Shown here: in pieces, positions 15,001 through 29,412 of the stretch | How the letters are laid out: the number at the start of each line of letters is the position of its first letter | How positions within the stretch are numbered: position 1 is the first letter of the stretch | Program-made: the position numbers and the translations under genes | NCBI GenBank assembly: GCA_041624095.1 | Contig: JBFJVR010000001.1 | Coordinates: 1-30,923, forward strand | Length of the DNA: 30,923 bases | From: Oleiphilaceae bacterium | GTDB taxonomy: Bacteria; Pseudomonadota; Gammaproteobacteria; Pseudomonadales; Oleiphilaceae | Direction: 5' to 3' | The notes under the pieces: model-generated | The model's database searches: none | The model's input: the letters and a program-made list of their open reading frames with translations, nothing else | Told to the model about the DNA's origin: nothing

Positions 15001-18000
15001 ACACCGTATCTTCGTCTGATCAATGCAGCTGACCCTACGACAGTTTTGCTTGAGGTCATTGGCGACAACCCGCAGTTGCCATACGGCTTTACGACCGAGG
15101 GCGACTACTACATCGAAACCGGTTATCAGGTTGAGACCAACGAAATACGCGAAACCAGCACTAAAACGACCCAAACAGTACATCGTACGGTCAATGTCGA
15201 ACGCTTTATTGTTGTTGGTTATTTCCAATGGTCGACTAACAACAGCAGCTGGACTTCATCTTCTACACAAGTCTCAACGCCGGTGAATACGGCTAATATC
15301 CTTCCGACTTATGACACCGGCGTCATTGGTGGCAGCAGTTATCGACTAAACGTGTCGTTGCAAGAACATGCGATTAACAGTTCCGCTTTCGACTTAACCG
15401 GGATGGTAATTCGCATAACAGAGGGCGCTGGCTTTGATGATGCCACGGGTATTGGCCAAACGGCAGTGATCACCAGCTTCGACCCGCTTACCGGTGCGGT
15501 TAGCGTTACGCCGACTACGCCAAGCGCTTGGGCAATTGATGACACTACACGGTATCAGATCGAATACGACATCAGTTCCCAGTATGCAGCTTATGCGATA
15601 GACGAAAATGTAAACTGGATGAACGACAGCTACAAGATAGCGCTAACCGCAGCACCAAGTGCGGATTATAGTATTAATGTGAATGCCATTGATGCGCGTA
15701 GCTATAATGCTGACTTAGCCTTCAGTGACCCAAGCAATGCTGAATTCTTGCAGTCACAGGTTGATATTGCTGCGCTTAGCCGCTTAGTCGGCTTTACGGT
15801 GGACGCCTGGGATACGCCGGTTACCATTAATATTTCGGCTATAGACGACGCAGTTATCGACGGTGGCGACGCGAAAGTGGTCGCACCTCCGGAAGAGCGA
15901 ATTAACCAGATTCGCGGCCCTTTAACCATCGACGGCGGTATTCGTACCAACCAAGAAGCGGTCATCAACAACCCGCATATGCTGCCAGACGAAAACAATT
16001 GGATCATCGCTGACGGCTTACTTACAGCCGATGCCAGCATAGCCGGCAATGGCGAGTTAAACATTATCGATACTGGTGCAACACATTTCGATCCGGATAA
16101 CCCGGACGTATTGCAGAACCCCGGTTTTGACCCGCGCGCTAACGACGCCCCTTATGAGATATTGTTTGTCTCTGGCGCACTCGAAGGCATGTCTTTCGAT
16201 GTAGTGGAGGGCAGCGTAAGCGGTGCCCAGTTAACTATTCGTCCTATTGGTGCGGTGTTCGGTGAAGATGGCTGGCCGATGGATAGCGATGGCAATCCGC
16301 TGCTACCACTTGCCAGTGACAGCTATGTGTTCCGCCCAGTAAACCGCAACACCTTGGTTGAAGAGTCCTCACAAGTAGATGTAATGAGTATATTCAACGG
16401 CGACAGCCCGGCAGACGACGAGGGGGTTCTCACCGCAAATCGGCTCTCCGGTTTTGGCATGGGCGGCGACACGGTTATTGCAGGTGAAACCATTCTCGGC
16501 GGTATCCACTACGCCAACCTCGAAAATCTGAATATTGAACTGGGCAGTGGTAACGACACCCTGACTATCGAATCGACTCATCAAGGCACAACTAGCGTGA
16601 TGGGCGGCGCAGGCGAAGACCAGGTGCGCGTCAAAACCATTGCCGGACAAACCTTTGTCGACGGCGAAACTGGTAGTGATGGCGTAGTCGTAAGCAGTGA
16701 TGCACAGCAGCTCGATCAGATCATGTCACTACTCACCGTCATCGGAGATAGTGGCCCCAGCGGTGCTGATGGCGAAGTCGATACCCTGACTATCGACGAC
16801 AGTCTCGACACCAACGACAATACAGCACAGCTAACAAAAGATACGCTGACAGGGCTCGATATGCCGAGCATTCAGGAGCAACAGCAGATCTACTTACAAG
16901 CTGACTCGGGAACCTTCGATTTAAGCTTAGCGGGCTATGGCACACTCACCGTCGATTGGAACGTTTCAGAAAGCCAACTGGCGGCTGACATTCAGAGCTT
17001 GATCGACACCGTGCATACTGAACCCGGCTTTAACGGTGGCGTTCAGGTTTCATTATCGCTTGCAGACGGATTGCCACAGCGTACCTACGAGATTCGCTTT
17101 ATCAACGACTTGGCTGGTATTGATATGCCCCGGTTTGAAGTGGATGGTGCACTGCTTGGCGCTCCGACCAGCTTTACGCCAAGAATCGAGAGCCAGACCC
17201 TGCAAGATGGTGGAACCGAGCCGCAAACGATGCAAAACGTGTTTGTGCTTGAAATGCTGTCGCAAACGGGCACCTTCCAGTTAGGCCTCTTGGATGAAGT
17301 AATTACCTTAAACAACAATGTAAGCGAACAAGACTTTTTTGCTGCGCTTGACCCCATTCTGAATCCGAACAATCAACCCGACAGAGTCTCGACCTACCCG
17401 GGTACAAATGGTTTTCAGCTGAAGAAGGCTGGTACAAGCTTTATTTTGGTGCTGCAAGGTGAACATCAGGAGCTGATTCTTGATCAAAACAATATCCTAT
17501 CGGGTGATGTTTCACTCACGCAGCGCGCAGACGGTATTAACTATTACAGTATCGAAGAGCTGAATATCATCACCGGCGCAGGGAATGACCGTATAAATGT
17601 GCTGTCGACCAATGCCGGGACGACGACCAATATCAACGCGGCAGCCGGTAGTGACCAGTTCCATGTTGCATCGACTGCCAATGGCAGTTTTTCACGGCAG
17701 GACACTGCCGATGGCGTACTTGATGGCATTCAAGGCACTTTGAATATTGACGCGGGTAGCGAGCACAATGCGCTATATGTCAGTGACTTCGATAGCCTCG
17801 TAGCGGATACCGGTGTAGTGCTCAGCGATGGTCAGATTCAGGGCATGTCGCTAGGCGATATCAACTACACCGCGACAGGCGGCAGCTTCGATAACGATCT
17901 GGTGATTTGGGCCGGGCAGGGTGCCGACAACATTAGCCTTAGCTCGGTATATCAACAAAGTGTCTCGATCACGAGTTTGTATACCAACGCCGGGGCAGAC

Positions 18001-19836
18001 AACATCACTATTACCACGCTAGATGATCTTGCGAATCCCAACCATTTGCTTCTGGAACCTTTGCGTCGACGATTGGAGCTCTTCAGCCAAGCGGGCATCG
18101 ATAATATAGATGCATCCGTTTCGTCGATGGCGGTACGCGTCGATGGTGGAGAAGATAAAGATTACATCACTGGCGGGCAGGGCGACGATGCCTTGTTTGG
18201 TTCAAGCGGTAATGATGAAATCTACGGGCTATCGGGTAACGACTACATCGACGGCCAGGCTGGACACGACACCTTGTTTGGTCACCAAGGAACCGACCGG
18301 ATATTTGGCGGTTCGGGCGATGACCTGATACGCGGCATGAGCGATAACGACGTACTCGATGGCGGCCTCGGACGAGACATTCTGTTTGGTGAAGATGGCC
18401 TCGTAACGGATTATTCAGGGGCTTCGTTATTAGCCGAACAGCTCCGTGATGGGAGTGGCACAGTACAGATAGCCAGAATATCCAGTTCGGTTTTCAGCAA
18501 CGACGACGATGTGATCAACGACCTTAGCGGTGACAACATCGTGTTTGCCGGTTTGGGTAACGACACAGTGACCACAGGCGATGGCAATGACTGGATTTTC
18601 GCCGACACCGGCGAGATCCACTATAGCGAGGGCAAAGTCCAGCATTTCTACTCCAATAATGATGGGCGGGGACAGGACTATATCCACAGCGGTGGTGGCA
18701 ATGACATCGTATTTGGAGGTTTGGGAAGCGATGAAGTCCATACTGGGAGTGGTAACGACGTGGTATTGGCAGATACAGGTCATATCGCCTTCCACGCAAA
18801 CGGTTCGCAGATTTCATTAATCGATAATGGTGTTACGCCAGCAGCTGGTGGCAACGACAGAATTTACCTCGGCGACGGAAAAGACACCGGTTTAGGTGGC
18901 TTCGGAGCTGACCTGATTGAAGGCGGAGCTGGGTCCGATGCGATCTTTGGTGACTTCGTTAGCATCAAACAATCCCAGTCAGGTATTCGCGATATCCAGT
19001 CCCTAATGGCCGGTATAGGTAGCAGTGACGCCTTATCGGGCGGCGCCGGTTTCGATATGCTGGTTGGCGGAGCAGGCCGCGATGTATTTACCGGCAGCCT
19101 GACAGAAGACATTATTATTGGTAACTATGCGCGCATCATCGACTCGCCAGACGAACGGTCCTTGCTGGTCGTATCTGACCCCAGCAACCGCGAGGTGATC
19201 TCTGCCAGCATGTTCGGCCTTTACAGAGACGAGGCGCTTGGCCGCGCCACCGATACTGAAGAGCAGCAGTCCTTGATCTTCGATTACCAAGCCTATGCAA
19301 ACAAGCCAAGCCCACTGAAATCGGATACAGCGCTGCGCTTAATGCCGATGCTCAACAGCGAAGACTTGTCACGCTTATCCGACAGCGAGCTAAAAGACTT
19401 TTTGCGCAACCTGCCGCTGGTACCACAGAAGAGCCATACCTCGCACACGATACCCAAGTCATCGGGCTCAAGCCTCGACAAACTGTTTGATTTAGACAGC
19501 GACGCTGCGGCAGAAAGCAATAAACTGGGTATGGGTGCGCACTTGCTTGATGACCTGTATATGACGCAAAATGGCTCGACCAAAAATAGCGACACCGAAG
19601 CCAAGGCGCTAGGGTCAAACGGCTCGACTAGCGACGAACCAAATCGCCAGCTAGACTCCGGGCTCGCGGCAAGTCTGTTACTTGCCGCTCGGGTCGCCGA
19701 TAAACGTGGCTGGAAGGTCTCACGTTTTAGCGATGAGGAATCAAAAATTCAGGGCGACCTCGATAGCCTGCGGCGGGCTCAGGCAAGCCAGAAGTTTGTG
19801 GCCTGGACGAAAAACGATAGCGCGACCAAGCACTAG
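1..19836 (+). CDS. Giant RTX/beta-roll repeat surface protein (adhesin-like), 5'-partial
   Basis: The 6604-aa ORF from ATG 22 has no upstream stop in frame (cgc gac atc acg ctc agc tat = RDITLSY) and no SD before ATG 22, so the gene probably starts left of the window. It is rich in D/G/S/T/A/N, has many GGxGxDxL-type nonapeptides in several clusters, and I saw no Cys by eye. Stop TAG at 19834-19836. Confidence 0.93.
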   Translation, partial: RDITLSYMGKTLSSQFDSARNGYFYTVTVDNVSYQFVADNSEQSLNDALKLLAGLKPAELGNNAATVQQITHLGEQRKVISVDEFGFQTDDNANYALLKVTYNDAAGSQTAYADVALTRSGLDARQKVAGEAYGDGDILRGSGYFYQVSLESGSQQFDENGQPILEDQFVAAVQRDGNITQEISLANGLDRVTLFYGYNTDALQNGMSSLNSVEIYSWMSSVEVVDTINAAFDNVSVSVSELDDALSGAPWTIQVDSAGAKQFAYHYQTQAFAGQVLKQADSALLQAFVRAQAAGDGIWEHAFNDDGSPSLFIETAMLDGQLTWAEWMKTAKLQSGTSAQSLLPVHDLVAAAITEAEVFDQAPDWTAATAQLKTLLSNFAGMERVTITSSTGSDGLPVWSFSESVASNAFNLYEFSDSTIGANDTAVHVFYNGLYKSINFGELTLSAEDKSRHVVVDSADNNAALLAAMTQQVKALTGLESSVAYDGTRWQIEVAGALSSSLQLSTDSRFKPDPVSLGDSETLVYIGDESGSLVGSRLSLSHEDITEGQIKLYVGDSAVSLSVDPSTTRDALVAALGSVSGVNINVIADSGSSSEWTLSVEDANLDDDLTIGLEAVASRTSLPLVLVSQWQQGSLLAEDATLEGLFDASTLVLPDLSSLRNLMLAVDGGPATDISIDSADISASKTSIANALGVAEADIDVNVFDGVWNITFLTGPAPSVLLHYDLPGQSVSLSGTDLQLPDLSSALNVQLQVDDGPRTDITLDASDLSTSKTSIANGLGLAEADIDVSLVNSAWRISLLTASPGEILLHYDLPEQIGLAEKLGLGLTPLSKALDNTRLLLPDLSQAGTSNLQFAGSSLSMSYDDQNSDIYLGDGLTAEEFAAAASTPALTIDPNDVTLSEVVDGWVIDFKGALAPALTLNFDLPGLTGQSRSLELVAFDYSQQSVAIPLGFDQIEVSYNGESAVIDLTPFQLSGAESDTDFPVQYTADDLAGLFAGINVLEDAQLNAEISADPAGYLQLSIVMPNGESEYFALAIAPVVLGSQQADIISSVPVSNGFVVPVASAGDNLTLAFGAGLDAGSQLEITVPANFSAAKLQQQLLAHAGSQGFAVSSVKVETINAGSDWAITFFADTALPLYYSINGAVESAAAAQFKTITDNSVQQINLPLVEETLALSLGDETVYIYRDASANEVKTALESLSLVTQAMVEVDASSWTITLIDPASDGSQSYPVLSWQAINNTIDNAAVADAVKTIERLGGETWSVELDQTNLSQQAVYDFELNTNSGETFINAVQIIERQVPRALLKDVWEIDESSGQAVKTGEQDWFLDPRTVVDGSVDEIAISGSDANDHFLIGNQILNKGQGDAEQIQYGVMQITHTREGLADDGVTINLRSLSRVASTEEAALGLEGNSSVNDILNIDAGEGNDTLLAGLVPNSPDIVAGNDILLSNMVAELGLIGGEGNDWIVGSKFIDRIEMGSGSDRVSGNEGVDIFIGDESSIGDVLLEARSGSFSLSDIALSITYQQKTAKITETGVDTGERQVVELEDVQLFESFILYGGADTDVFATGNFTKDAILDGTEGGDRYTTTLSGELGESSNVRIADSGALGADTLEIQGSAADDTIHLDVIDSSSDYLVGYTSVSSPLRFSYRGETTEEINVDLPVGQTRLLDQRKAIEAALQALDGIQDVIVSGEGTELKPWKIVLVDADQNAGEFYALEAANSNTEVSALQTAIVERLQNNVADALLAGAPNVDAMFDNPINQQQLFFRRGEWPADLVDLDSAERSVTLNYNGSVSEFTFDTTSLPSSQSEQITEFRNQLETAIQVFDASASIRGAGTDQDPWVIQLVDAATDRHDNFYSVTLSNVPQYEVEQDGVTQSYNLFTDPADLADAAAQTRASADLSTIGDFQRVYYNFTLEQVVTRGREGDDTFIVDDTAAAVKVYGDAGSDNFLVGRVLKTTTVVSDGREVEIVDSSDPNAPGITSGVSFNADFFGGSGDDYFEVNHNVGVLNLYGESGDDTFFLKAHLELNPDTTGSKTTREIAGSTINAAAGDEDGFIEANDNDSLIDYVENNRVNIYGGSGFDTIVIAGTSFDDEFFIYTDNDGQQYLYGAGIKLESIDGIERLALVTGAGNDKVWLYGLDQRLSLLLNLGSGDDTVQIGGEAKDFTVTYPKSGAIYTVGQKVNIEQLLASSTRVTPDTISLVKRKFDDELSQEERIAGAKAALDDAKMVSIFQDFFKKWFPEADASKVIISRDYWNLLETNLATALYHFRAGLNATSSSQIKYGSGFDNFKNNTQAILDKFAYLPGQYKQNSGRDWNKIRGYLTADQLAQMPETLDLAGVQALLGGGGLWIDKWVKNPMGLLSIDDILFSDYLNKALGYTLWGDFLHGHVHRPIDLEGKHLVTSQIPEGKGYMDHLTGVEQGDKSYIFISTDEVRAHGNNQTGGDLLVDMLALFYDVEALNDVTYNIVEQWQSVEVDGIQSYRFDTLPEREETRWIPESYDLSRIAGVVRIAGAAGDDAIEINAQDDNGLSLTLGTQTLKLGEFVFSGDPMETLKVKAAQKFIDNYSGATTDARYINQKLLVDTARSAQADWLASTYITTADGIAISNQDVQDALIRANKETNINVIHDLLENTLSSLSLDVSIDREVPASDGIKFTLEGQLLALQTVWTVSNDNLGSYNWFDAAAEETAEDGAQRQTWFTGLGDFIQHGLHLSDSNQYADANATFSLDVLNGYLASEQLEFLLANNGSSFDGLQDQLIALRNYLTLTVVSDTLDDKAYTRLGESALKVYKQNSPTLGASQSTRYYWDLLYSPSDIARGENWLDPNRAGAFNDRIDLSEILGPPDALNTADTVSPQLALLRAVVPGASNINLGAGTATDKLAGNDIELLKEYARQLAALDESYYTYAYSGTNETGAKVLAAIAINRVSNTVEKSHLLESGVYLTADNWGDYIAAFYTDPDYTAALASLPIANITDFTEENVDAFIQAALNQSTLEIKAPVEDGTRINLGGGRIGYMDIQTVQDDAFLYVPLEVVLREDITESVNVDRSFVSVARELYEVTYDTLDLANDGGLLNHGFWFGTVENLTLNINQDDTRDIGDIVDMSNSKFVEDLVINTGGGDDTLNIVTEGLIGTLDIFTGSGADTLSVNAANGTGNINVDSGTEADQITLNILSLEADENGNLPAAEALSVSLEGGAGADQYTVTLSGQTRENITIEDVNDGVAGSAGNQLTVIASEFDDAFLLRNNLLYLYNHSDDEVGERIDYTGLSYLTIYGEDGNDSFYFDDTNIVTDVFAGAGDDTFQVGQMYASPRGEQSGLPIEEYFFTQETTKGFLSNGIGEQATLNGEDGEDSFIVYRNMAELSLFGGNDSDTFVVRSFIEVDPNDPDKPFTNINGGQGADFINYTLNSPVLIDGGDGLDTLTVLGTEFGDDYIITDEGIYGAGRVTRYSGIEQVLVDGMEGNDTFFVFSTPEGVDLQLIGGLGSDTFNVAGGSDGKAIDVVADDLRGHSGLIAHNDGSDIINTLDVNVMDNDEAGVRIIPLQDSYKVIEGVQSVAYAVVLTRPPKKFVSFEAKASPLGDRSIPGSEGVTLNGRNGADGITLLFDKSNWFIPQEIEIAGIDDSLTEGNIAYSIKHKVTEGFGLDGDSYDGIAVESYTVEVIDNELSNVVITPNSHELVAAETGNWDAGYNSYDLVLSKQPTADVTVLISDVSGQLSTSPASVTFSSDSSAANAWNRVQTVIIDAVDEADGQIEGIHYSRLTHTVISSDSSYNGLLADSLDVKIGDAEISQFIVLESGGDTTVTEKASTAVLTEGQVLNASGTDFIGTIGDSQISENGQNNSSNTAQDLDISSWSIKNDAEIVDSTTIPHLSIDGRLEGTKDYYKFEVTDTMLLDEFGNPKAVAVHLDMDHGFEYSYASGQFVSDPIYWVSKLELFKESDDQRVIGTRGTGADAGSLNNSYYDDKVTYSLTEAGVYYIEVGSRYNWYYDYEARQYKYGVPDGADYELQVSIEDHAYDELKFTPDPVLENEAEQALNNQIQDIDDASNWFTFDDGAIGDGTLDAATPHAVITGSGDGSVDRYQFSIDYNMLNPNAGDLDAVNSLIDGKLWYTAATVNLSAAHTIASGELWSITINGMQYDYAAQPGDGINQVAEGLELSVNSQIDASENVTVDASGSSLIVSATTGSAFTLGDDGSLVGNVATEPDAIVGNTIVNPYTTASSTRFGSYTETFTNALLSITGDANANSSWAVQVGGVEVARYDAATSDVARNTVLQALADNSGGAIVADTANGTLTVTGGGDSVVLVVTGDASGVDVGISKTLSAGVDVTADSLNIALTGDWSYGGDVWTLTHSGQVFTYTTPGNTVDSIDDVAAALAAEIRNLTNANGRNSDGIVNSSASATGGVISFDTIYTGANPDASNVSYSVTRSDTADTIADTNSYMISQTIDLNGTFAAGETWDIRDGGTSLLTGTYVAGTNGDTNYTGLAQQLAALDDGSDSYQISANGEQLVVTLTTNDETATLNLNAQVVAATNALTTSNGSVGPVVAATIDFSPVSAGDSVTFSLSAAGGGSPSVNQAFTNITALETLINGGGSFANYSASVSGDVLSITFNDGSDRAVSVSSASYTGSVQGSGTADTDVATATINLANDREFVVNETWTLFDGTNEIASHLVTNASSIADLINNNLASGLSAAYNLVYDNAAEELRITANAGSFSGDFSLVITKAGSVGNVSAITAELPQTVILGQLITLDAPNLVQTGDIWTLDIQGIATDGSFVSSQNYTTSNPALSAIASQFETQLTAESALSIVSSGNTLLVERNDGSALVISELSNQRADAESALAATQDTRSHYSTAEIDLAGSPSKGKIWIVTIDGQDFDYAATSSDTNLNLIAQGLRDRIMEDTATHGYVAMVADGATSIVLTNLRSATVEVDYANAGTALGLFDLQQAVTTTEKVLSDTLSSSSTTTTPSSSQYVSGEYRYTTNTSTYVRVDETTKVYHQIVKTPYLRLINAADPTTVLLEVIGDNPQLPYGFTTEGDYYIETGYQVETNEIRETSTKTTQTVHRTVNVERFIVVGYFQWSTNNSSWTSSSTQVSTPVNTANILPTYDTGVIGGSSYRLNVSLQEHAINSSAFDLTGMVIRITEGAGFDDATGIGQTAVITSFDPLTGAVSVTPTTPSAWAIDDTTRYQIEYDISSQYAAYAIDENVNWMNDSYKIALTAAPSADYSINVNAIDARSYNADLAFSDPSNAEFLQSQVDIAALSRLVGFTVDAWDTPVTINISAIDDAVIDGGDAKVVAPPEERINQIRGPLTIDGGIRTNQEAVINNPHMLPDENNWIIADGLLTADASIAGNGELNIIDTGATHFDPDNPDVLQNPGFDPRANDAPYEILFVSGALEGMSFDVVEGSVSGAQLTIRPIGAVFGEDGWPMDSDGNPLLPLASDSYVFRPVNRNTLVEESSQVDVMSIFNGDSPADDEGVLTANRLSGFGMGGDTVIAGETILGGIHYANLENLNIELGSGNDTLTIESTHQGTTSVMGGAGEDQVRVKTIAGQTFVDGETGSDGVVVSSDAQQLDQIMSLLTVIGDSGPSGADGEVDTLTIDDSLDTNDNTAQLTKDTLTGLDMPSIQEQQQIYLQADSGTFDLSLAGYGTLTVDWNVSESQLAADIQSLIDTVHTEPGFNGGVQVSLSLADGLPQRTYEIRFINDLAGIDMPRFEVDGALLGAPTSFTPRIESQTLQDGGTEPQTMQNVFVLEMLSQTGTFQLGLLDEVITLNNNVSEQDFFAALDPILNPNNQPDRVSTYPGTNGFQLKKAGTSFILVLQGEHQELILDQNNILSGDVSLTQRADGINYYSIEELNIITGAGNDRINVLSTNAGTTTNINAAAGSDQFHVASTANGSFSRQDTADGVLDGIQGTLNIDAGSEHNALYVSDFDSLVADTGVVLSDGQIQGMSLGDINYTATGGSFDNDLVIWAGQGADNISLSSVYQQSVSITSLYTNAGADNITITTLDDLANPNHLLLEPLRRRLELFSQAGIDNIDASVSSMAVRVDGGEDKDYITGGQGDDALFGSSGNDEIYGLSGNDYIDGQAGHDTLFGHQGTDRIFGGSGDDLIRGMSDNDVLDGGLGRDILFGEDGLVTDYSGASLLAEQLRDGSGTVQIARISSSVFSNDDDVINDLSGDNIVFAGLGNDTVTTGDGNDWIFADTGEIHYSEGKVQHFYSNNDGRGQDYIHSGGGNDIVFGGLGSDEVHTGSGNDVVLADTGHIAFHANGSQISLIDNGVTPAAGGNDRIYLGDGKDTGLGGFGADLIEGGAGSDAIFGDFVSIKQSQSGIRDIQSLMAGIGSSDALSGGAGFDMLVGGAGRDVFTGSLTEDIIIGNYARIIDSPDERSLLVVSDPSNREVISASMFGLYRDEALGRATDTEEQQSLIFDYQAYANKPSPLKSDTALRLMPMLNSEDLSRLSDSELKDFLRNLPLVPQKSHTSHTIPKSSGSSLDKLFDLDSDAAAESNKLGMGAHLLDDLYMTQNGSTKNSDTEAKALGSNGSTSDEPNRQLDSGLAASLLLAARVADKRGWKVSRFSDEESKIQGDLDSLRRAQASQKFVAWTKNDSATKH
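1951..2775 (+). repeat. Three tandem ~87-101 aa protein repeats (LPDLS...W.I.F...[HN][YF]DLP)
   Basis: LPDLS starts at 1957, 2218 and 2521. Units 1 and 2 share SKTSIAN.LG.AEADIDV and LLHYDLP; unit 3 is diverged (GWVIDF, LNFDLP). Confidence 0.85.
4258..6480 (+). repeat. RTX-type Ca-binding beta-roll cluster 1
   Basis: DAGEGNDTL, IGGEGNDWI, YGGADTDVF, RGREGDDTF, YGDAGSDNF, FGGSGDDYF, YGESGDDTF, YGGSGFDTI, TGAGNDKV, LGSGDDTV. Confidence 0.85.
9340..10480 (+). repeat. RTX-type beta-roll cluster 2 (paralogous to 4726-6480)
   Basis: TGGGDDTL, TGSGADTL, EGGAGADQY, YGEDGNDSF, AGAGDDTF, FGGNDSDTF, NGGQGADFI, DGGDGLDTL, DGMEGNDTF, IGGLGSDTF. Confidence 0.85.
10588..11350 (+). other. Two tandem Calx-beta/cadherin-like beta-sandwich domains within the giant protein
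   Basis: Both follow the pattern DN[DE]..V.I....V.E.....Y.[VL]VL...P...V......F...[NA]W...Q.[IV].I...D....EG (DNDEAGVRII...SNWFIPQEIEIAGIDD; DNELSNVVIT...NAWNRVQTVIIDAVDE). Family name assigned from motif memory. Confidence 0.6.
11512..12039 (+). other. PPC-like (pre-peptidase C-terminal type) beta-sandwich domain 1
   Basis: NNSSNTAQDLD...DYYKFEV...LDMD...KLELF...YSLTEAGVYYIEVG...DYELQVS matches the D.Y.F / L.L / G.YYI.V / Y.L.V pattern of PPC-type domains. Confidence 0.6.
12320..14810 (+). repeat. About eight diverged ~100-120 aa repeats with an (I/L).L....G[DE].W.[IL] signature
   Basis: Signature Trp codons at 12379 (GELW), 12736 (NSSW), 13033 (GDVW), 13366 (GETW), 13966 (NETW), 14278 (GDIW), 14593 (GKIW), plus a Trp-less unit near 13663 (GDSV). 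Most are followed by an amphipathic helix (e.g. VAEGLELSVN, VAAALAAEI, IAQGLRDRI). Confidence 0.7.
18142..19110 (+). repeat. C-terminal RTX nonapeptide array
   Basis: Nine consecutive nonapeptides at 18142-18384 (DGGEDKDYI, TGGQGDDAL, FGSSGNDEI, YGLSGNDYI, DGQAGHDTL, FGHQGTDRI, FGGSGDDLI, RGMSDNDVL, DGGLGRDIL), then about a dozen more up to VGGAGRDVF. C-terminal RTX arrays are an established hallmark of type I secretion substrates. Confidence 0.95.
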
Positions 19837-19880: not shown

Positions 19881-20180
19881 ATGTCAGATGATGCAGTAAA
19901 CAAGAAGAAGACCTCAGGCCCAACTATACGCTGGGACGACAGCAAAATGCGCAGCGTGTATGCCAATGTGTGCAATGTATCGAGTACCCGTGAAGAGGTG
20001 ACCTTGTTATTTGGTACAAATCAAGCGTGGCGCGCAGGGCAGCAGGAGGTTGGCATCGAGTTGACCGATCGCATTATCGTTAGCCCATTTGCCGCCAAAC
20101 GGCTGTCAGTGTTGTTAAACGGCGTTGTATCGGAATACGAAAAACGCTTCGGCGCGTTGGATGACATCGAACAAAAATAA
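19881..20180 (+). CDS. DUF3467-like small protein (99 aa)
   Basis: YANVCNVSSTREEVTLLFG and RIIVSPFAAKRLSVLLNGVVSEYEKRFG match the DUF3467 pattern as I recall it (YAN...EF.L.F ... R..MSP..AKRL...L...YE...G). Good SD; 44 bp after the giant gene. Confidence 0.8.
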   Translation: MSDDAVNKKKTSGPTIRWDDSKMRSVYANVCNVSSTREEVTLLFGTNQAWRAGQQEVGIELTDRIIVSPFAAKRLSVLLNGVVSEYEKRFGALDDIEQK

Positions 20181-20350: not shown

Positions 20351-22174
20351 ATGAGTGAATTAAACCTGCGCCTACCAGACGAGCCAGATCTTCCCGACAG
20401 CTTGGTGGATGTTGAAAGTGAGCGTTGGCATGCAGAGTGGCTAGTCTGGATGTGTCGCCAGATACCCTCAGCGGTGGCCGCGCTGGTTGTCAGCGACGAA
20501 GACCTGAGCGGTCAATTTCACCCCAAAGCAGTGTGGCCCGATAGCACGAATCACGATGCGCTAATGCAACAGGCGACAGAAGAAACCCTGCGTAAAAAAC
20601 AGGCCTTGCTTACACCGCTCGACGATGGCAAACATCATTTGGGTAGTTATCCGGTATTTGTTGAAGGCACCTTACGTGCTGTTATCACGATGCTATTCAT
20701 GATCAAAGACCAAAACGAGTTAGAACAAGCGCTCAAAGTCATCGAGCACTGTTCGGCTTGGCTAGAATTGGGTTTGGCACGCAAACAACTAGGCTCATTG
20801 TCAGCCCAAACGCAGCGGCAGAAGTTAGTGGTCGACAGTATTGCCGATGTGTTGGGAGAGCCAGATTTTGAACATGCAGCACTGCGTTTTGTTAACTTAA
20901 TGGGGCGTCACCTCGGTGCTGAGAGAGTCGTGCTGGGCTTCGTTCAGCATGGTGAAGTAGCCGTTCACTCAGAGTCGGACAGCAGCGGGCATAGCAAGAA
21001 GCACGAGCTCGTCAAATTGAGTAATCAGGCGCTCCAGGAGGCAGTTGATCAACAAGAGTCAATTGTCTGGCCACAGCCTGAGGACATGCACAAAGTGACG
21101 GTAGCGCACCAAAAACTTGCCGAAGCTGAAGGCAAACGAGCCTTGCTAAGTATTCCGCTGGTCGACAAGGAATTGTGCTACGGAGCCATATTGTTCGACC
21201 GTTCACCAGAAAGACCGTTTAACGATGCGGAGCTACTGACCGGCGAAGCCTTGGCAAACTTCGTTGGCGCCGTCCTCGAAGAAAAACGCCAGTCCGACTT
21301 ACCCTTGTATAGCCATGCTTACCGCAGTATCGAGAAACAACTCGCCCGGCTAATCGGACCTGGTCACCTGACGCGCAAAGTCACCGTGTTCAGCGCCGTT
21401 CTACTGCTGGTTTTGTTCAGCGTTCTCAATGGAAGTTATAAGGTAGGTGCCGATGCCGTACTCGAAGGCGCAGAACTGCGGTCTATCGTCGTTCCCTTTG
21501 ATGGCTATCTTCAGCGCGCCGAAGTGAGAGCGGGAGACAGCGCGCCCGAGCGTACCGTGTTAGCCGAGCTGGATACGCGCGAACTGCGTCTGCAACGCAT
21601 TAGCTGGATCAGCCAACAGGCCACCTCTAAGCGTCAGTACGAAGACGCTCTGGCAAAGCAGGAACGCGCACAAGTTCAGATTAGCCATGCGCAAGTACAA
21701 CGCGCCCAAGCAGAAATCGATTTGCTCGACTACCAGATATCGCAAGCCATCATGCGCGCTCCCTTCGATGCCCTTGTGGTATCGGGTGATCTCAATCAGC
21801 GTATTGGGTCCCTAGTGCGACAAGGCGAAGTATTGTTTGAACTTGCTCCCAGCGAACGTTTTCGCTTAGCCATTTACGTCGATGAGTTCCGTATCAATGA
21901 TGTTGCGTCTGAACAACAGGGACAGTTAGTGCTCGCCGCCTTACCCGACGAGAAATTCCCGTTCGTAGTTACGCGCATTAACCCAATGGCAGAAGTGCGC
22001 GATGGCGCTACGGTTTACCGGGTTGAAGCCGAAATCAACAGCACCTCGGATTTACTCAGAGTCGGGCTCGAGGGGGTCGCGCAGGTTTATGTTGATGAGC
22101 GTTTGCTAATCAGCATCTGGACCCGCAGCCTGAGTGACTGGTTAAAGCTGCAGTACTGGCGGTTCTGGGGCTAG
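20351..22174 (+). CDS. GAF domain(s) + single TM + HlyD/membrane-fusion (periplasmic adaptor) protein
   Basis: GAF-like segment at aa ~165-310 (ALLSIPLVDKELCYGAILFDR), TM near aa 346-364 (KVTVFSAVLLLVLFSVLNG), split biotinyl-lipoyl halves IVVPFDGYL and MRAPFDALVV around a coiled-coil hairpin, then a beta-barrel. The start codon has no clear SD. Confidence 0.85.
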   Translation: MSELNLRLPDEPDLPDSLVDVESERWHAEWLVWMCRQIPSAVAALVVSDEDLSGQFHPKAVWPDSTNHDALMQQATEETLRKKQALLTPLDDGKHHLGSYPVFVEGTLRAVITMLFMIKDQNELEQALKVIEHCSAWLELGLARKQLGSLSAQTQRQKLVVDSIADVLGEPDFEHAALRFVNLMGRHLGAERVVLGFVQHGEVAVHSESDSSGHSKKHELVKLSNQALQEAVDQQESIVWPQPEDMHKVTVAHQKLAEAEGKRALLSIPLVDKELCYGAILFDRSPERPFNDAELLTGEALANFVGAVLEEKRQSDLPLYSHAYRSIEKQLARLIGPGHLTRKVTVFSAVLLLVLFSVLNGSYKVGADAVLEGAELRSIVVPFDGYLQRAEVRAGDSAPERTVLAELDTRELRLQRISWISQQATSKRQYEDALAKQERAQVQISHAQVQRAQAEIDLLDYQISQAIMRAPFDALVVSGDLNQRIGSLVRQGEVLFELAPSERFRLAIYVDEFRINDVASEQQGQLVLAALPDEKFPFVVTRINPMAEVRDGATVYRVEAEINSTSDLLRVGLEGVAQVYVDERLLISIWTRSLSDWLKLQYWRFWG

Positions 22175-22213: not shown

Positions 22214-24352
22214 ATGAGCGCGACACTGTTCTCCCGCGATTGGTATCGCATAGCAGACTTGAAACCTCACCTGCGACGACACGTTAAGGTAAGTGCTCAC
22301 CGTTACCGCGGCCGGCGCTGGTACTTATTAGAAGACCAGGTAACGGGGCAAATAAGGCGTATTACGCCTGAATCATACTTAATGGTCGGGCTGATGAACG
22401 GTAGTCGCAGCGTAGACACTCTTTGGCAGCTTGCTTCAGAGCGACTGGGCGAGTCCATGCCGACACACGAAGAGATGCTGCAGCTGCTTGCTAATCTGTA
22501 TCAGGCTAATCTTATTCGTATGGATCTCAGCGGTGATATCAGCGAGTTGTTTGAGCGCGGAAAAGAAGCGACCCGCAAACGTTGGTTAGGAAAACTTAAA
22601 TCGCCACTTTCTATCCAGATTCCACTGCTTGACCCGGAACGCTTCTTACAAGCCAGCCAGAAGTACGTAAAGCCGCTGTTCTCGCCGGTCTTCGCATTAA
22701 TCTGGATTGCCCTGTTCGTTAATATGCTTATCCTCGCTGGCCAACACTGGGACGAACTAAGCGATAATGTCTCCGACCGCGTACTCGCCGCCGATAACTT
22801 ACTGCTACTGTGGCTGATCTATCCGATCATCAAACTGTTACATGAATTAGGGCATGGCTACTGTGTTAAACGGGGCGGCGGAGAAGTACATGAGCTGGGC
22901 ATAATGCTGCTGGTGCTGATTCCCATGCCCTACGTCGACGCTTCGTCATCGAGTGCCTTTGCCAATAAAAAACAGCGCATGCTCGTCGGTTCGGCCGGAA
23001 TACTGGTCGAGCTGTTTATTGCTGCCTTGGCTATGATAGTTTGGGCCAATGCCGAAGCCGGGCTAGCCAAATCAATCGCGTATAACATCCTTTTCATCGC
23101 GGGCGTTTCAACGGTACTGGTGAACGGAAACCCTCTACTGCGTTTCGATGGCTACTATATTCTCGCGGACTTTCTGGAAATTCCTAATTTAGCGCAGCGT
23201 GCTAACCAATACTGGGGTTGGCTCACTAAAAGCATCCTGTTTGGAGTCAAAGGTTTACCGTCACCCGCCTACGATAAACGCGAGGCCTTATGGCTGTTTT
23301 TCTACGGCTTTGCAGCCTTTATCTATCGCTTGTTTTTAATGGTCACCATAGTGTTGTTTGTCGCCCAGCAATACTTTTTTCTGGGGATAATTCTGGCAGT
23401 TTGGTCGGTCGTTGGAACCTTCGTATGGCCAAATCTTAAAATCCTGTTCAAAGCCTGGCGCGACTCCGACATCACCTCCGGGAGGCGCAGTCCTACCTTG
23501 GTTGTGGCTTTGTGCAGCGGATTAGTCGTATTCTTATTCGGCGTGCTGCCTTTCCCGCTGTCCACCAGCATTGAGGGGGTGGTACAGTTCAACGATGAGC
23601 GCCGGGTAATTGCTCACGAGAATTGTTTTATTCGCAACATACGAAGTACACCGGGGTCATTCGTCAAGCAGGGTGAGCTGCTATTGAGTTGCGATAACCG
23701 CGAATTAAAAACAGCGCTATTGGTGTTACAGCAGCAGCTGGCCGAAGCGGTCGCTCAGCGCCAGGGAGGTTGGGACGACCCGGTAAATCTGAAAATATAC
23801 GATGACGAACTCGCGCGTTTGAAATCAGAAATACAAGAAGCTGAAACCCGAATCGCATCGCTGGAAATTTACGCCAAAGCCGATGGAATGTGGTCGCTCA
23901 ATAAGCCGACAGATCTAAGCGGGAAATTCATTAAACGCGGTGAGCTTATCGGCCATATATTGGCAGACGAACGCGTTACAGTCCGCGGAATGATTCCCGA
24001 AGCCGATATCAAACTGGTGCGAGACCACACAGAAACACTGGTAGCCTATAAAGCCTCGGACCTTCATCAACAATGGTCACCCGCAGACTGGAAGGTCTTC
24101 CCCTCGACTACTAAACAGGTCGTAAGCCAGGTGCTGACAGAAGCCGGCGGCGGTACGATTATGCTGAGCCCTGCCGAAGCCGAACCGACGACCTTATTGC
24201 CGTATTTTCTTGTGTTAACGGAATTCGAGCACCTGCCGCGCGTACGCGTGGACGAACGGGTCTTTCTCAAGTTTGAACACCCCCCTGAAGCGCTTGTTTA
24301 TCGCACATATCGCTTGTTGCGGCGCACATTTTTGACCTATTTCGATGTCTGA
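22214..24352 (+). CDS. PqqD/RRE-like N-domain + M50 (site-2 protease family) zinc metalloprotease + HlyD-like adaptor fusion
   Basis: HELGH at aa 210-214 (22841-22855) and NGNPLLRFDG at aa 304-313 give the HExxH + NxxPxxxxDG zinc-ligand set of M50. There are multiple TM helices. The C-terminal half has lipoyl-hairpin-lipoyl features (GSFVKQGELLL ... EIYAKADGMW ... GKFIKRGELIGHI). The N-terminal ~90 aa has a three-strand, three-helix pattern (YLLEDQVTGQIRRIT...LMNGSRSVDTLW...MLQLLANLYQANLI). Confidence 0.85.
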   Translation: MSATLFSRDWYRIADLKPHLRRHVKVSAHRYRGRRWYLLEDQVTGQIRRITPESYLMVGLMNGSRSVDTLWQLASERLGESMPTHEEMLQLLANLYQANLIRMDLSGDISELFERGKEATRKRWLGKLKSPLSIQIPLLDPERFLQASQKYVKPLFSPVFALIWIALFVNMLILAGQHWDELSDNVSDRVLAADNLLLLWLIYPIIKLLHELGHGYCVKRGGGEVHELGIMLLVLIPMPYVDASSSSAFANKKQRMLVGSAGILVELFIAALAMIVWANAEAGLAKSIAYNILFIAGVSTVLVNGNPLLRFDGYYILADFLEIPNLAQRANQYWGWLTKSILFGVKGLPSPAYDKREALWLFFYGFAAFIYRLFLMVTIVLFVAQQYFFLGIILAVWSVVGTFVWPNLKILFKAWRDSDITSGRRSPTLVVALCSGLVVFLFGVLPFPLSTSIEGVVQFNDERRVIAHENCFIRNIRSTPGSFVKQGELLLSCDNRELKTALLVLQQQLAEAVAQRQGGWDDPVNLKIYDDELARLKSEIQEAETRIASLEIYAKADGMWSLNKPTDLSGKFIKRGELIGHILADERVTVRGMIPEADIKLVRDHTETLVAYKASDLHQQWSPADWKVFPSTTKQVVSQVLTEAGGGTIMLSPAEAEPTTLLPYFLVLTEFEHLPRVRVDERVFLKFEHPPEALVYRTYRLLRRTFLTYFDV

Positions 24353-26339
24353 GTTCGCAAGTAAACAAGCTAGCCTTGCCGGTATCCGCAACGAACGGCA
24401 GTGGAAAGATAGCAACCGGCTAGACGTTTTTTTGTCTCGCAGCAGGGAGCGCCTTGGTAAAATTAGCTCGTTGCTCACCCAAAGCAACACGCGTTTGGTC
24501 AGGGCTATTCTTAACCGCAGCGCCGAGCTAGAAGCATACTCTGACGCAAGCTTGAAGCAGGAACTCGAGCAAACCAGAAAAAGGCTACGCCTCGAAGGTA
24601 TTAATAAACACAGCCTTGTTCAAGCGTTTGCAGTCATCCGAGAAACGAGCGGTCGCAGCTTGGGAATGCGCCATCACCATACGCAGATATTGGCATCAAT
24701 CTCATTGTTGCGTGGCAGCATTGCCGAAATGGCAACAGGTGAAGGCAAAACGCTAGCAGCAACCTTGGCGGCAGCAAGTGCTGCGCTGAGTGGGATACCT
24801 GTTCATGTGGTTACCGTCAACGATTATCTGGCAGAACGTGACGCAGAAGAAATGACACCGCTTTACGAAGCTCTCGGGCTAAGTGTCGGCATCGTTACTC
24901 ACGAAAAAGAACTTGCAGAACGTCGCGAGGCCTACGCCTGCGATATATGTTATTGCAGTAACAAGGAACTGACCTTTGATTTTCTGAAAGACCGCTTGGT
25001 GTTAGATGGAAAAACAGGTACTCGACGGTTGCAGGCAGCGCTCTTGACCGGTAGCGCCACTTGGTCAAAGCAGCTGTTATTACGCGGTTTACATTTTGCG
25101 ATTGTAGATGAAGCAGATAGTGTGTTTATTGATGAAGCGCGCACACCGCTCATCATTTCTGGCGAAGAAAAATTCGGCGAGCGCGAGGCAGACTTACTAA
25201 AAACAGCCATGCGAATCGCCAAACAGTTTGAACAGAATCTGCATTTCACTCAAGACGAAACGTCGGCCGTACATTTAAGCTCTGCGGGTCACAAGCTCTT
25301 GGTAGAAGCCTGTGCAGATTTGGACGGCTTATGGCAGAGCAGTTTTTATCGAGAGCCACTTGTTAAGCAAGCGTTGGCGGCACTACATACCTATGTGCTC
25401 GATCGTGATTACATTATCGATGAGGAAGGCGCAGTACAGATCGTAGACCCCTACACCGGACGGGTGATGCCAGGGCGCAGCTGGGGGCAGGGCTTACAAC
25501 AAATGATCGAACTAAAAGAGCAACTAGAACTGACAAAACCGCGTGAAACCAACGCGGAAATTAGTTACCAGAACTTCTTTCGCAAATATCACCACCTGTG
25601 TGGCATGACGGGAACAGGGCGCGAAGTCGCAGGGGAGTTGCTCGACGTGTATCGTTTACGAAGCGATGTCATCCCTTTGTTGAAACGGAGCCGCCGTAAA
25701 CGCCATTATCGCGAAGTGTATGCAGATGAAGCCGCTAAATGGGCGCGGGTTGCGGAACTCACCCGCGAACTCGAGGGTAAAGGGCAAGCCGTGTTAATAG
25801 GCACAAACTCTGTCGCTTCGTCCGAAGCAGTCAGCACTGTACTCACCGAGGCTGCGATAACACATCGGATACTCAACGCAAGGCAGGACAAAGAAGAAGC
25901 CGATATTGTCTCGATGGCCGGTGGCTCAGGCGTCGTTACTGTATCTACCAGCATGGCGGGGCGAGGCACTGATATAAAACTGAGTGATGAAACAAGGGCA
26001 GCGGGCGGCTTACATGTTATTATCACCGAGCTTCAAGATTCAGCACGTATAGACCGACAACTTGCTGGGCGGAGCGCACGGCAGGGAGATCCGGGCTATG
26101 TTAGCCTGATACTGTCGCTGGACGACATACTTATAAAAAAAATGTCGGGCAGTGCACTGCGTAAAATTATAAAAATGCTGAAGGCATCTGGTTTGGCGCT
26201 GCCTCACTTTGTTGGCTACGCGATACAAATTCACTGCCAGAAAAAGCTGGCCCGAAGCCACTACAAACAACGTAAACAACTGATTAAAGTCGACACACAA
26301 CGCCAGCGGACACTGGCATTTACCGGAGATAAAAAATGA
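24345..26339 (+). CDS. Short SecA paralog (DEAD motor + preprotein-binding domain only; C-terminal domains absent)
   Basis: SecA-specific motifs: EMATGEGKTL (Walker A, M129), VHVVTVNDYLAERDAEEM, AIVDEADSVFIDEARTPLIISG (DEAD at 255), GRVMPGRSWGQGLQQMIELKE, ISYQNFFRKY..LCGMTGT, STSMAGRGTDIKL, RIDRQLAGRSARQGDPG (Q572). It ends at aa 664, versus about 900 for housekeeping gammaproteobacterial SecA. It overlaps both neighbouring genes. Confidence 0.9.
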   Translation: MSEFASKQASLAGIRNERQWKDSNRLDVFLSRSRERLGKISSLLTQSNTRLVRAILNRSAELEAYSDASLKQELEQTRKRLRLEGINKHSLVQAFAVIRETSGRSLGMRHHHTQILASISLLRGSIAEMATGEGKTLAATLAAASAALSGIPVHVVTVNDYLAERDAEEMTPLYEALGLSVGIVTHEKELAERREAYACDICYCSNKELTFDFLKDRLVLDGKTGTRRLQAALLTGSATWSKQLLLRGLHFAIVDEADSVFIDEARTPLIISGEEKFGEREADLLKTAMRIAKQFEQNLHFTQDETSAVHLSSAGHKLLVEACADLDGLWQSSFYREPLVKQALAALHTYVLDRDYIIDEEGAVQIVDPYTGRVMPGRSWGQGLQQMIELKEQLELTKPRETNAEISYQNFFRKYHHLCGMTGTGREVAGELLDVYRLRSDVIPLLKRSRRKRHYREVYADEAAKWARVAELTRELEGKGQAVLIGTNSVASSEAVSTVLTEAAITHRILNARQDKEEADIVSMAGGSGVVTVSTSMAGRGTDIKLSDETRAAGGLHVIITELQDSARIDRQLAGRSARQGDPGYVSLILSLDDILIKKMSGSALRKIIKMLKASGLALPHFVGYAIQIHCQKKLARSHYKQRKQLIKVDTQRQRTLAFTGDKK

Positions 26340-27109
26340 TAAGCTCACCAAACAGGGTTAGACTCACGGCTGTATGCGCACTCATGTTATGTAGCGCTGG
26401 GCCACTATCTGCAAGCGAATCGACATTGTCGACGCTGGGTTGCATGCTAGAGCCGAGTGAAAAGGTGGATGTGAGCTCCCCGGTACCGGGTGTATTGGAC
26501 AAGGTCGCGATCAAAAGGGGCGACCTGGTAAAAAAAGGCGATGTGTTATTTAAATTGAAAGCAGGGGTAGAGCAAGAGCAAGTTGATCTGGTAAAAGCAA
26601 AAGCTGATTTCGCCGAACGCAAAGCGAAACGGAATCAGGAATTATACAAAGATGACATTCTCACCATGCACGAACGCGACGAGATAGAAACCGAATTATT
26701 ACTCGCAAAAACCGAACTACGCTTGAAGCAGGAAGAACTCGCCCTGCGTACCGTCAAAAGCCCAATTAAGGGTGTCGTGGTGAATCGTTTGAACACCAAA
26801 GGAGAGTATGTAAACGTTGAACCGGTAGTGCAACTGGCGAATCTAGACCCATTGCATATCGACCTGCTGTTGCCCGCCAGTTACTTCGGGAAAATCACCA
26901 AAGGGCAAGAACTACTGATCAAACCTGAAGCCGAGATGATCGCAGCAAGCCCCGCCAAAGTGGATATCGTCGACCCTTTAATCGACCCCGCTAGCGGCAC
27001 CTTTCGCGTACAGTTGGTCATGGCAAACCCCGGTAACAAGATACCCGCAGGCTTACGCTGCTCAGCACAAACACAGCCGCAAGCCGTAACGCAAGTTGCG
27101 CCGAAGTAG
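26336..27109 (+). CDS. Efflux RND/HlyD-type periplasmic adaptor (MFP) with probable cleavable signal peptide
   Basis: N-terminal basic + hydrophobic leader (MISSPNRVRLTAVCALMLCSAGPLSA), VSSPVPGVLDKVAIKRGDLVKKGDVL and TVKSPIKGVV lipoyl halves, short hairpin, DPLIDPASGTFRVQL..ANPGNKIPAG barrel motif. ATGA overlap with the SecA paralog stop. Confidence 0.9.
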   Translation: MISSPNRVRLTAVCALMLCSAGPLSASESTLSTLGCMLEPSEKVDVSSPVPGVLDKVAIKRGDLVKKGDVLFKLKAGVEQEQVDLVKAKADFAERKAKRNQELYKDDILTMHERDEIETELLLAKTELRLKQEELALRTVKSPIKGVVVNRLNTKGEYVNVEPVVQLANLDPLHIDLLLPASYFGKITKGQELLIKPEAEMIAASPAKVDIVDPLIDPASGTFRVQLVMANPGNKIPAGLRCSAQTQPQAVTQVAPK

Positions 27110-27115
27110 TAAGCA

Positions 27116-27601
27116 ATGACGAGTAAATTGACCAACAGTTTGCTGGGTCTGGTGATTGTATTGTTGCTTGTGAATATCACGTTAACGACGAAGGTCCTCA
27201 AGCAGCAAAGCCATGACCTAGCAGACGAAAAGCAGACACAATTCGAGCCCGCTGTAGCTAAGGAGTGGGGCCGTAAAGCAATTAAACTTTATAACCAGCA
27301 GGATCATGCCTCACTGTACGAGCTGTTCCACGCCCAGGCAAAGGACAAAATCACTAAACAACAACTCGAAACCCAGCTTACTAGGCTTTACCAGTTATTT
27401 GGTGATATTCAGGATGGCGCGCTGGTCAATTCGATAAAGCTCGGTGAGAAGGGTAACGAAGAATATTACCAATTGGGCTACAAGGTGCTCGCAACCAAAA
27501 CCGACACCGGAACAGCTAATCTCACACTATCGCTGATCAAGACCGAGAACGATATCAGACTTTATGGCTTCAAACTCAACGCCCTCCAATCCCTCGAATA
27601 G
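27116..27601 (+). CDS. Membrane-anchored hypothetical protein, DUF3887/NTF2-like periplasmic domain (tentative)
   Basis: N-terminal hydrophobic helix (LLGLVIVLLLVNITL), then AIKLYNQQDHASLYELFHAQAKDKITKQQLETQLTRLYQLFGDI followed by beta-strands, resembling DUF3887/DUF4019-type folds. It starts 6 bp after the MFP stop. Confidence 0.6.
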   Translation: MTSKLTNSLLGLVIVLLLVNITLTTKVLKQQSHDLADEKQTQFEPAVAKEWGRKAIKLYNQQDHASLYELFHAQAKDKITKQQLETQLTRLYQLFGDIQDGALVNSIKLGEKGNEEYYQLGYKVLATKTDTGTANLTLSLIKTENDIRLYGFKLNALQSLE

Positions 27602-27794: not shown

Positions 27795-27871
27795 CGGGGT
27801 TTGTTATGGCTGTATTCTGACTTATACCCTTACTTCAACGGCCTATCAGCTGGCATGCAAGGTTGCCTACT

Positions 27872-29200: not shown

Positions 29201-29412
29201 ACACATTTATTGTATGTGGCCGAAGTTAACACGAGCAAAGCAAGCGCTGTAACATTCGGGTAATTTCGCCAATAAGGAAGTCCCTTCTAACTCGATAGCA
29301 ATGCTACAAGCTAAAGCTAAAATAAACGGCCTTTAAATAGCTAAGCAAGATTTATTATTTGATAATACTCATAGAATAACGCAAACGTGTGGGTTCGAGC
29401 GGAGGGAAGATT

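Follow-up and report, generated by a model that had tools for sequence, protein, structure and literature searches.

A conserved short SecA paralogue ending at its scaffold helix, encoded in an M50-HlyD gene cassette beside a giant repeat-protein gene

The stretch of DNA analysed here, referred to as the window, comprises the first 30,923 nucleotides of contig JBFJVR010000001.1 from an Oleiphilaceae bacterium (assembly GCA_041624095.1). It encodes a short paralogue of SecA that keeps the catalytic motor, the polypeptide clamp and the long scaffold helix, and stops where the wing domain would begin. This end is evolved and conserved, and is not the product of decay: it recurs throughout a widespread family whose genes sit in a recurrent cassette with genes for an M50 metalloprotease-adaptor fusion and HlyD-type adaptors, in association with genes for giant surface proteins. 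Judging from this genomic setting, the short SecA cassette probably helps to export the neighbouring giants. The gene and the parts of its product are as follows.

24345..26339, forward strand: short SecA paralogue ('secondary SecA_DEAD domain protein'), 664 residues, identified by Pfam and NCBIfam domains, fixed-length family and tree
24480..25640, forward strand: SecA_DEAD region, that is NBD1 with the PPXD inserted, residues 46-432 (Pfam, 337 bits; invariant columns)
24999..25073, forward strand: family-specific NBD1 insert of about 19-25 residues (residues ~219-243), seen from alignment gaps and as two short helices in the model
25188..25511, forward strand: PPXD, residues 282-389 (Pfam SecA_PP_bind, positions 3-110 of 110, hence the full model)
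25695..26144, forward strand: NBD2 (P-loop_SecA, from residue 451), with motif VI at residues 572-584 (Pfam and conservation)
26205..26321, forward strand: long scaffold helix, residues 621-659, the final structural element (model, conservation and alignment to canonical SecA)

Translation of the open reading frame at 24345-26339 gives 664 stop-free codons. An earlier note on this DNA, written by a model from the sequence alone, had reported that the NBD1, PBD and NBD2 motifs were intact, with motif VI at residues 572-584, and had predicted that a Pfam scan would return SecA_DEAD and SecA_PP_bind and leave SecA_SW, the wing/scaffold domain, without a match. Pfam and the alignments gave exactly this outcome. 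In alignments of 13 and of 85 homologues, the Walker A motif GEGKT (K135), the DEAD box (D255, E256, A257, D258) and motif VI (Q572 to G584) are invariant or nearly so. The further claim that only the DEAD motor is left holds for the missing SecA_SW, but goes too far otherwise, as the PPXD and the whole of the long scaffold helix are retained. The protein is best described as an N68-like fragment, PPXD included, to which the entire scaffold helix is added, which is more than a DEAD motor.

The position of the end can be read from canonical SecA proteins. Identity with the full-length SecA of the same genome is 37%, and residues 631-650 align with positions 630-649 of that protein (residue 650 pairing with 649) and with the matching segment of Bacillus subtilis SecA. 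The earlier note placed the end about 30 residues after this segment; it lies 14 residues after it, or about 33 after the segment's start. In alignments with solved structures, residues 61-652 pair with B. subtilis SecA 32-602, and the C-terminus falls at about canonical position 663, the border between scaffold helix and wing domain. Two additions distinguish the family: an extension at the N-terminus, some 20-30 residues long, in which an E17/D27 pattern is conserved, and the NBD1 insert, present in 13 of 13 aligned members and absent from both B. subtilis SecA and the genome's own canonical SecA. All NCBIfam models for SecA and SecA2 match far below their cut-offs, the matches ending near position 600 of about 790. 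The housekeeping model NF009538 scores 562 bits for a cut-off of 814, so that the protein falls outside housekeeping SecA in architecture and score, and the SecA2 models TIGR03714, TIGR04221 and TIGR04397 score 455, 405 and 501 bits for cut-offs of 930, 725 and 1085.

An AlphaFold2 (AF2) model built from 85 homologues has a pLDDT of 91 and a pTM of 0.89, with helix 621-659 as its last element. Its top Foldseek matches are SecA structures only, the best superpositions being on 5eul and 6itc, in which SecA sits on SecY with a translocating chain (TM-score 0.79-0.80, root mean square deviation 3.2-3.4 Å). The engineered Escherichia coli fragment N68 (5k9t) is also among the matches, as is 4uaq, a mycobacterial SecA2. 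The predicted fold and polypeptide clamp are thus intact, and the model demonstrates nothing beyond that.

Could the short form simply be a decayed, functionless, strain-specific truncation of a second secA? Its shorter length is all that speaks for this explanation. A word-indexed search found more than 100 clusters (clustering at 90% identity) of homologues at 48-75% identity, nearly all of 661-669 residues. When 1.8 billion cluster representatives (clusters at 50% identity) were searched exhaustively, at least 150 family clusters were found, and the best 150 matches, at 38-55% identity, are nearly all of 645-690 residues, with alignments that reach query residues 659-663. A C-terminal signature ending in LAF-x-G is conserved, F659 being invariant in 13 of 13 sequences. 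Hundreds of homologues at 37-75% identity share the same length and end, a point that the earlier note had asked to be checked, and their catalytic motifs are invariant. Nor was a wing remnant found in any frame of the host genome: a six-frame search gave a single SecA_SW match, in the canonical secA gene. Downstream, an intact gene overlaps the stop codon. Length and end are fixed across the family, no wing remnant is found and a separate full-length secA exists. The end is evolved; gene decay is refuted by the conserved family, and we regard it as practically certain to be wrong.

The full-length secA lies on contig C314 of the host assembly, which is 92% complete, as an open frame of 915 codons, with 902 codons from the ATG to the end of the piece of C314 that was retrieved. 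The earlier note had asked for such a gene to be confirmed. The canonical copy and the window copy are the two SecA_DEAD matches of the genome, so that the short protein is a second SecA_DEAD protein there; secY is present in a single copy. The contrast drawn earlier with Gram-positive SecA2 systems also stands, given the low SecA2 scores, the single secY, the HlyD and M50 neighbours and the absence of asp genes.

A tree with 36 short and 13 canonical sequences (those of Kamneva et al. 2015 not among them) splits the two groups at a branch whose length is 1.0 and whose SH-aLRT support is 100%. Taxonomic classes interleave inside the short clade, and short SecA does not group with the canonical SecA from its own lineage. 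Two long proteins were considered as fusions of a short-type SecA and rejected. P0195 (1240 residues, from NCBI) is a full-length SecA with SecA_SW; its score of 468 bits is within the range of the short family and its identity over the motor is 45%, and it may be a full-length relative near the origin of the family. An apparent 1370-residue fusion in genome G641 is spurious: GC-rich DNA gives rise to long open frames, and the normal three genes are present. We also noticed that many short members (P0003, P0006, P0008, P0010 and P0013) carry the NCBI name 'prepilin peptidase', a label at odds with their SecA domains and apparently a mistake of annotation.

The short SecA gene is part of a row of six genes on the same strand that follows a giant open reading frame, in the order DUF3467, GAF-HlyD, M50-HlyD, short SecA, small HlyD and a 161-residue membrane protein. 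The genes around short SecA are as follows.

1..19836, forward strand: 3' part of a giant gene, at least 6611 codons, with C-terminal RTX repeats and a 5' end cut by the contig start (open reading frame, domains, conserved tail)
19881..20180, forward strand: DUF3467 protein, 99 residues (Pfam), found only in cassettes with a giant gene upstream
20351..22174, forward strand: HlyD-type adaptor with GAF domain, 607 residues, one transmembrane segment at about 340-365 (domains, hydropathy, conserved partner)
22214..24352, forward strand: fusion of an M50 intramembrane metalloprotease with an HlyD-type adaptor, 712 residues, about seven transmembrane segments (Pfam/NCBIfam, hydropathy)
26336..27109, forward strand: small periplasmic adaptor of HlyD/RND type, 257 residues (TIGR01730, 126 bits, above cut-off)
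27116..27601, forward strand: 161-residue protein with an N-terminal transmembrane segment (hydropathy)

The stop of the M50-HlyD gene overlaps the short SecA start by 8 nucleotides (ATGTCTGA, 24345-24352), and the short SecA stop overlaps the start of the small HlyD gene in the ATGA at 26336-26339 that the earlier note had pointed out. These overlaps with both neighbours suggest translational coupling. A look through RNA sequencing runs turned up none that contains the locus. The HExxH and NPLLRFDG motifs of the M50-HlyD fusion are invariant in 18 homologues. Within the window we found no ABC, RND or TolC gene. The 161-residue protein is a possible accessory; open reading frames of 148-156 residues occupy its place in close relatives (loci L006/L007 and L037), and are equivalent to it in position. 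For the DUF3467 protein, a role as SecB-like chaperone was considered and is unsupported, though not refuted: its model has a pLDDT of 68, Foldseek gave no meaningful match in the PDB, and the best VIA-align Z score was 3.1. Further downstream, a mechanosensitive channel of the MscS family (27863-29200) and a tandem universal stress protein resembling UspE (29389-30390) are not conserved with the cassette and look like ordinary neighbours.

The coupling of short SecA to this cassette is strict in other genomes. In an even sample of 400 genomes from the host's class, 17 (about 4%) carry short SecA, counting the host and G135, whose copy is interrupted where its contig stops. The M50-HlyD fusion is found in all 17 (16 of 16 when the cut copy is set aside), and GAF-HlyD, M50-HlyD and short SecA stand together in 15 of the 17 loci; the two exceptions are a locus cut by a contig end and a genome with the partners on another contig. 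The small HlyD usually also accompanies short SecA. All four of the loci taken from other classes in the phylum contain this cassette. Its gene order is also repeated in three metagenome relatives (50-65% identity), beside giants of up to 16,436 residues. No ABC transporter was found in the window or in the related loci examined. In one genome (G329, L047:1128-5825), a 1565-residue CHAT-NACHT-TPR protein is encoded on the opposite strand beside the cassette, which may be coincidence; a SecA-NACHT-TPR fusion has been noted in a spirochaete (PMC4452313).

The large open reading frames that flank the cassettes encode surface-type repeat proteins with RTX, cadherin, Ig-repeat/Big, FG-GAP and DUF4347 domains. 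Where the N-terminus of a giant can be read, it carries a LEPR-XLL motif (NCBIfam NF012209) followed by DUF4347; both are seen in the giant N-termini on contigs C82 and C198 of the host genome, and LEPR-XLL scores 22 bits for a cut-off of 17 in locus L079. A hydrophobic core of the kind seen in Sec signals is missing from all the LEPR-XLL N-termini examined. Among the 400 sampled genomes, LEPR-XLL matches occur in 14 of the 17 genomes with short SecA versus 17 of the 383 others, an odds ratio of about 100; related genomes are not independent, so that the p-value exaggerates the association. At the other extremity, the giants encoded upstream of DUF3467 (window 19111-19836; L004, L007, L037 and L039) share a C-terminal tail that could be a recognition signal. 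It has a short hydrophobic stretch and then two conserved elements, G-W and F/Y-x-x-W, the second some 25-30 residues after the first. Nine contigs of the host assembly (C112, C441, C503, C507, C517, C537, C541, C554 and C560) each consist of one end-to-end open frame, and are presumably unassembled pieces of giant repeat genes.

One complete locus could be read, in genome G405, with the order TolC-like gene, LEPR-XLL giant of 14.9 thousand residues, DUF3467, GAF-HlyD, M50-HlyD, SecA and HlyD; the DUF4347-like stretch of this giant was seen only by blast to the host genome's own giants. In the host, contig C198 (L087:1405-5567) carries a TolC-like (OEP) gene immediately followed by a LEPR-XLL/DUF4347/RTX giant N-terminus, itself cut off by the contig end. 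Given the synteny with G405, the 5' part that the window's giant gene lacks is probably this N-terminus, and the TolC-like gene may encode the matching outer-membrane channel; no sequence overlap was found between C198 or C82 and the window start. The giant RTX protein of the window is the probable cargo of the cassette.

How could a SecA of this kind act? The strict genomic coupling is consistent with use of the short SecA with a channel other than SecYEG, built around M50-HlyD. The mechanism that we favour, and to which we give somewhat better than an even chance, is that of a cassette-dependent soluble ATPase that docks on an assembly of M50-HlyD, GAF-HlyD and HlyD proteins and helps to thread the giant toward a TolC-like exit, bypassing SecYEG. 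A single ancient event would have removed the wing, the IRA1/two-helix finger and the C-tail, and left a catalytically intact motor (NBD1, PPXD, NBD2 and scaffold helix). The resulting ATPase would dock on the inner-membrane assembly of M50-HlyD, GAF-HlyD and small HlyD, which would probably join the TolC-like outer channel. The PPXD-NBD2 clamp would grip the unfolded LEPR-XLL/RTX giant and help to feed it into this conduit instead of SecYEG, while the M50 domain plausibly trims the leader. Loss of IRA1 would leave control of the ATPase to the cassette partners. The anatomy of the protein, its conserved end, its coupling to the cassette and its association with giant proteins are shown by the data; we infer the docking, the substrate, the direction of transport and the control by partners. 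A complex prediction that paired short SecA with M50-HlyD residues 1-336 scored 0.02, below the mark, and speaks neither for nor against binding.

Several observations weigh against this mechanism. In canonical SecA, the two-helix finger is thought to push the polypeptide, and short SecA lacks it. The retained parts (PPXD, NBDs and scaffold helix) are likewise points of contact with SecY in the canonical protein, so that loss of the wing and IRA1 does not by itself exclude SecY binding. The earlier statement that the parts working with SecY are missing is therefore right for the wing, the IRA1/finger and the C-tail, which are gone, but not for the PPXD, NBDs and scaffold helix, which remain. 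The gene for the outer channel lies outside the window, its link to this giant gene being synteny with G405 only, and the host genome has, elsewhere, ABC transporters of the type I secretion system (T1SS) and five TolC-like genes, which could serve an RTX cargo. Finally, the proposed role is not new, as it restates a hypothesis published in 2015 (Kamneva, Poudel and Ward, PMC4452313), and our literature search found no experiment on any member of the family.

A further caution comes from cassettes that lack short SecA. The host genome itself has a second cassette on contig C82 (L086:58-8721), with a 564-residue adaptor, a 712-residue M50-HlyD that is 36% identical to that of the window, a 304-residue adaptor and a LEPR-XLL/DUF4347 giant running off the contig; no SecA is encoded between M50-HlyD and the small adaptor, so that the genome counts two cassettes for one short SecA. 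The SecA-less layout is also present as a second cassette in G327, and is the sole cassette found in G346, G148, G292, G291 and G215. Among these, G292, G346 and G148, which are 96-100% complete, carry a canonical SecA_DEAD gene only. No conserved replacement ATPase was found beside the SecA-less cassettes, where the search turned up unrelated genes only. In a tree of M50-HlyD proteins, the SecA-less copies cluster among the SecA-linked ones, with two changes at the fewest. The dependence is one-way: short SecA always comes with the cassette, and the cassette can do without short SecA. Since such sister cassettes exist, export through the apparatus does not always need the motor, and short SecA looks like a cassette-dependent accessory and not a universal engine. 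This caution on the motor idea is new here. In the SecA-less cassette of G291 (L092:7021-10146), a PAS-GGDEF-EAL protein is encoded between the small adaptor and the giant gene, which hints at control by cyclic di-GMP as in Lap-type adhesins. The GAF domains found in the large adaptor may be connected with this.

We also considered a bolder formulation that takes the SecA-less cassettes into account. Short SecA would be a detachable booster motor of an envelope-spanning secretion system, as yet without a name, that has no ABC transporter, is made of the M50-adaptor, the GAF-adaptor, the small adaptor and a TolC-like channel, and is dedicated to LEPR-XLL giants. It would serve the window and C82 cassettes in trans, and M50 would remove the leader. 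We hold this formulation tentatively, at less than an even chance.

The same cassettes bear on an explanation in which short SecA is not a translocation motor at all, but a cytoplasmic unfoldase, holdase or clearance ATPase that keeps a chain of 6,000-16,000 residues unfolded, or pulls stalled chains out. An optional helper of this sort would explain why the cassette exists without short SecA, the ratio of two cassettes to one short SecA in the host would suit a soluble factor shared in trans, and the protein has kept the polypeptide clamp and lost the pushing finger. However, its gene keeps a fixed place between those for M50-HlyD and small HlyD and overlaps both at stop and start codons. This points to a stoichiometric part of a membrane complex and not to a free chaperone, and we consider a purely cytoplasmic role unlikely.

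A different possibility is that short SecA is a SecA2-like accessory whose site of action is still SecYEG, perhaps alongside the housekeeping SecA. It would assist the Sec channel with the giant, and the M50, HlyD and TolC proteins would come into play only once the inner membrane is crossed. The retained PPXD, NBDs and scaffold helix and the resemblance of the model to the SecY-bound state would fit, and mycobacterial SecA2 is a natural SecA without the wing domain that nevertheless uses SecYEG. The SecA-less sister cassettes likewise show that the apparatus can be served by another factor, possibly housekeeping Sec. However, the IRA1/two-helix finger and the C-tail are absent, the LEPR-XLL N-termini lack a core resembling that of a Sec signal, and in the sampled genomes short SecA never occurs without M50-HlyD, its gene overlapping cassette genes on both sides. 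Action at SecYEG thus seems to us improbable.

If the cassette does export giant proteins by means of a SecA-type ATPase, with neither ABC transporter nor SecYEG, double-membrane bacteria would possess a further class of secretion system, and a new one. The SecA motor would then be seen to be capable of working with another channel, and the exit route of LEPR-XLL giants of 6,000-16,000 residues would be explained. The question concerns a widespread family, present in about 4% of the even class sample and in other classes of the phylum, for which a hypothesis has been in print since 2015. The SecA-less sister cassettes provide a natural comparison for what the motor adds.

Among known systems, the closest is that of the secondary SecA_DEAD proteins without SecA_SW, described computationally by Kamneva, Poudel and Ward (2015, PLoS One, PMC4452313). 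Their conserved locus encodes GAF, Peptidase_M50 and HlyD proteins, sometimes with OEP, and they proposed SecA as the ATPase that replaces an ABC transporter and the M50 protein as the pore (PMC4452313). That study contained no experiments and named no cargo, and its tree puts the clades of secondary SecA_DEAD and SecA2 near each other (PMC4452313). Our literature search found no later papers that take up the family. The likeness is close: in both cases a second SecA_DEAD protein without SecA_SW (in the window, the first scaffold helix only) goes with GAF-HlyD, Peptidase_M50 and HlyD/Biotin_lipoyl proteins, and sometimes OEP, in a conserved locus, and groups across taxa. The order GAF, M50, SecA_DEAD, HlyD of the operon META1p2402-2399, which they describe in Methylobacterium extorquens AM1, is also that of the window. 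In contrast, the giant, LEPR-XLL, RTX and DUF3467 proteins and the SecA-less cassettes go unmentioned there, and the comparison is one of domains and gene order, with no direct alignment to their sequences. The family, the locus and the idea of SecA in place of an ABC transporter were thus already in print in 2015, and the window gene is a further member.

Two other reduced forms of SecA are instructive. The engineered C-terminal truncation N68 of E. coli SecA (5k9t), with which the isolated DEAD motor (3bxz) may be grouped, has nearly the same domain content, with NBD1, PPXD and NBD2; however, N68 is a laboratory fragment, whereas short SecA is natural and conserved, and adds the scaffold helix, the N-terminal extension and the NBD1 insert. 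Mycobacterial SecA2 (4uaq) and the other Gram-positive SecA2 proteins are likewise second, non-housekeeping SecAs with a reduced C-terminal region, but they keep the IRA1/two-helix finger and use SecYEG or SecY2, whereas short SecA lacks the finger and is found in a genome with one secY and no asp genes.

The T1SS that export giant RTX adhesins (LapBCE, HlyBD-TolC) resemble the cassette in their HlyD-type adaptors and in a giant cargo with C-terminal RTX repeats, and may also do so in a TolC-like partner, which the complete locus of G405 includes. The ABC transporter that a T1SS encodes with its adaptor is missing from the window and from related loci. On the side of adaptor and channel, the window encodes three adaptors, and the TolC-like gene is found in G405 and on C198, whose link to the window rests on synteny. 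Compared with a T1SS, the cassette has three different adaptors, including an M50 protease fusion, a SecA-type ATPase but no ABC transporter, and a cargo tagged at its N-terminus with LEPR-XLL.

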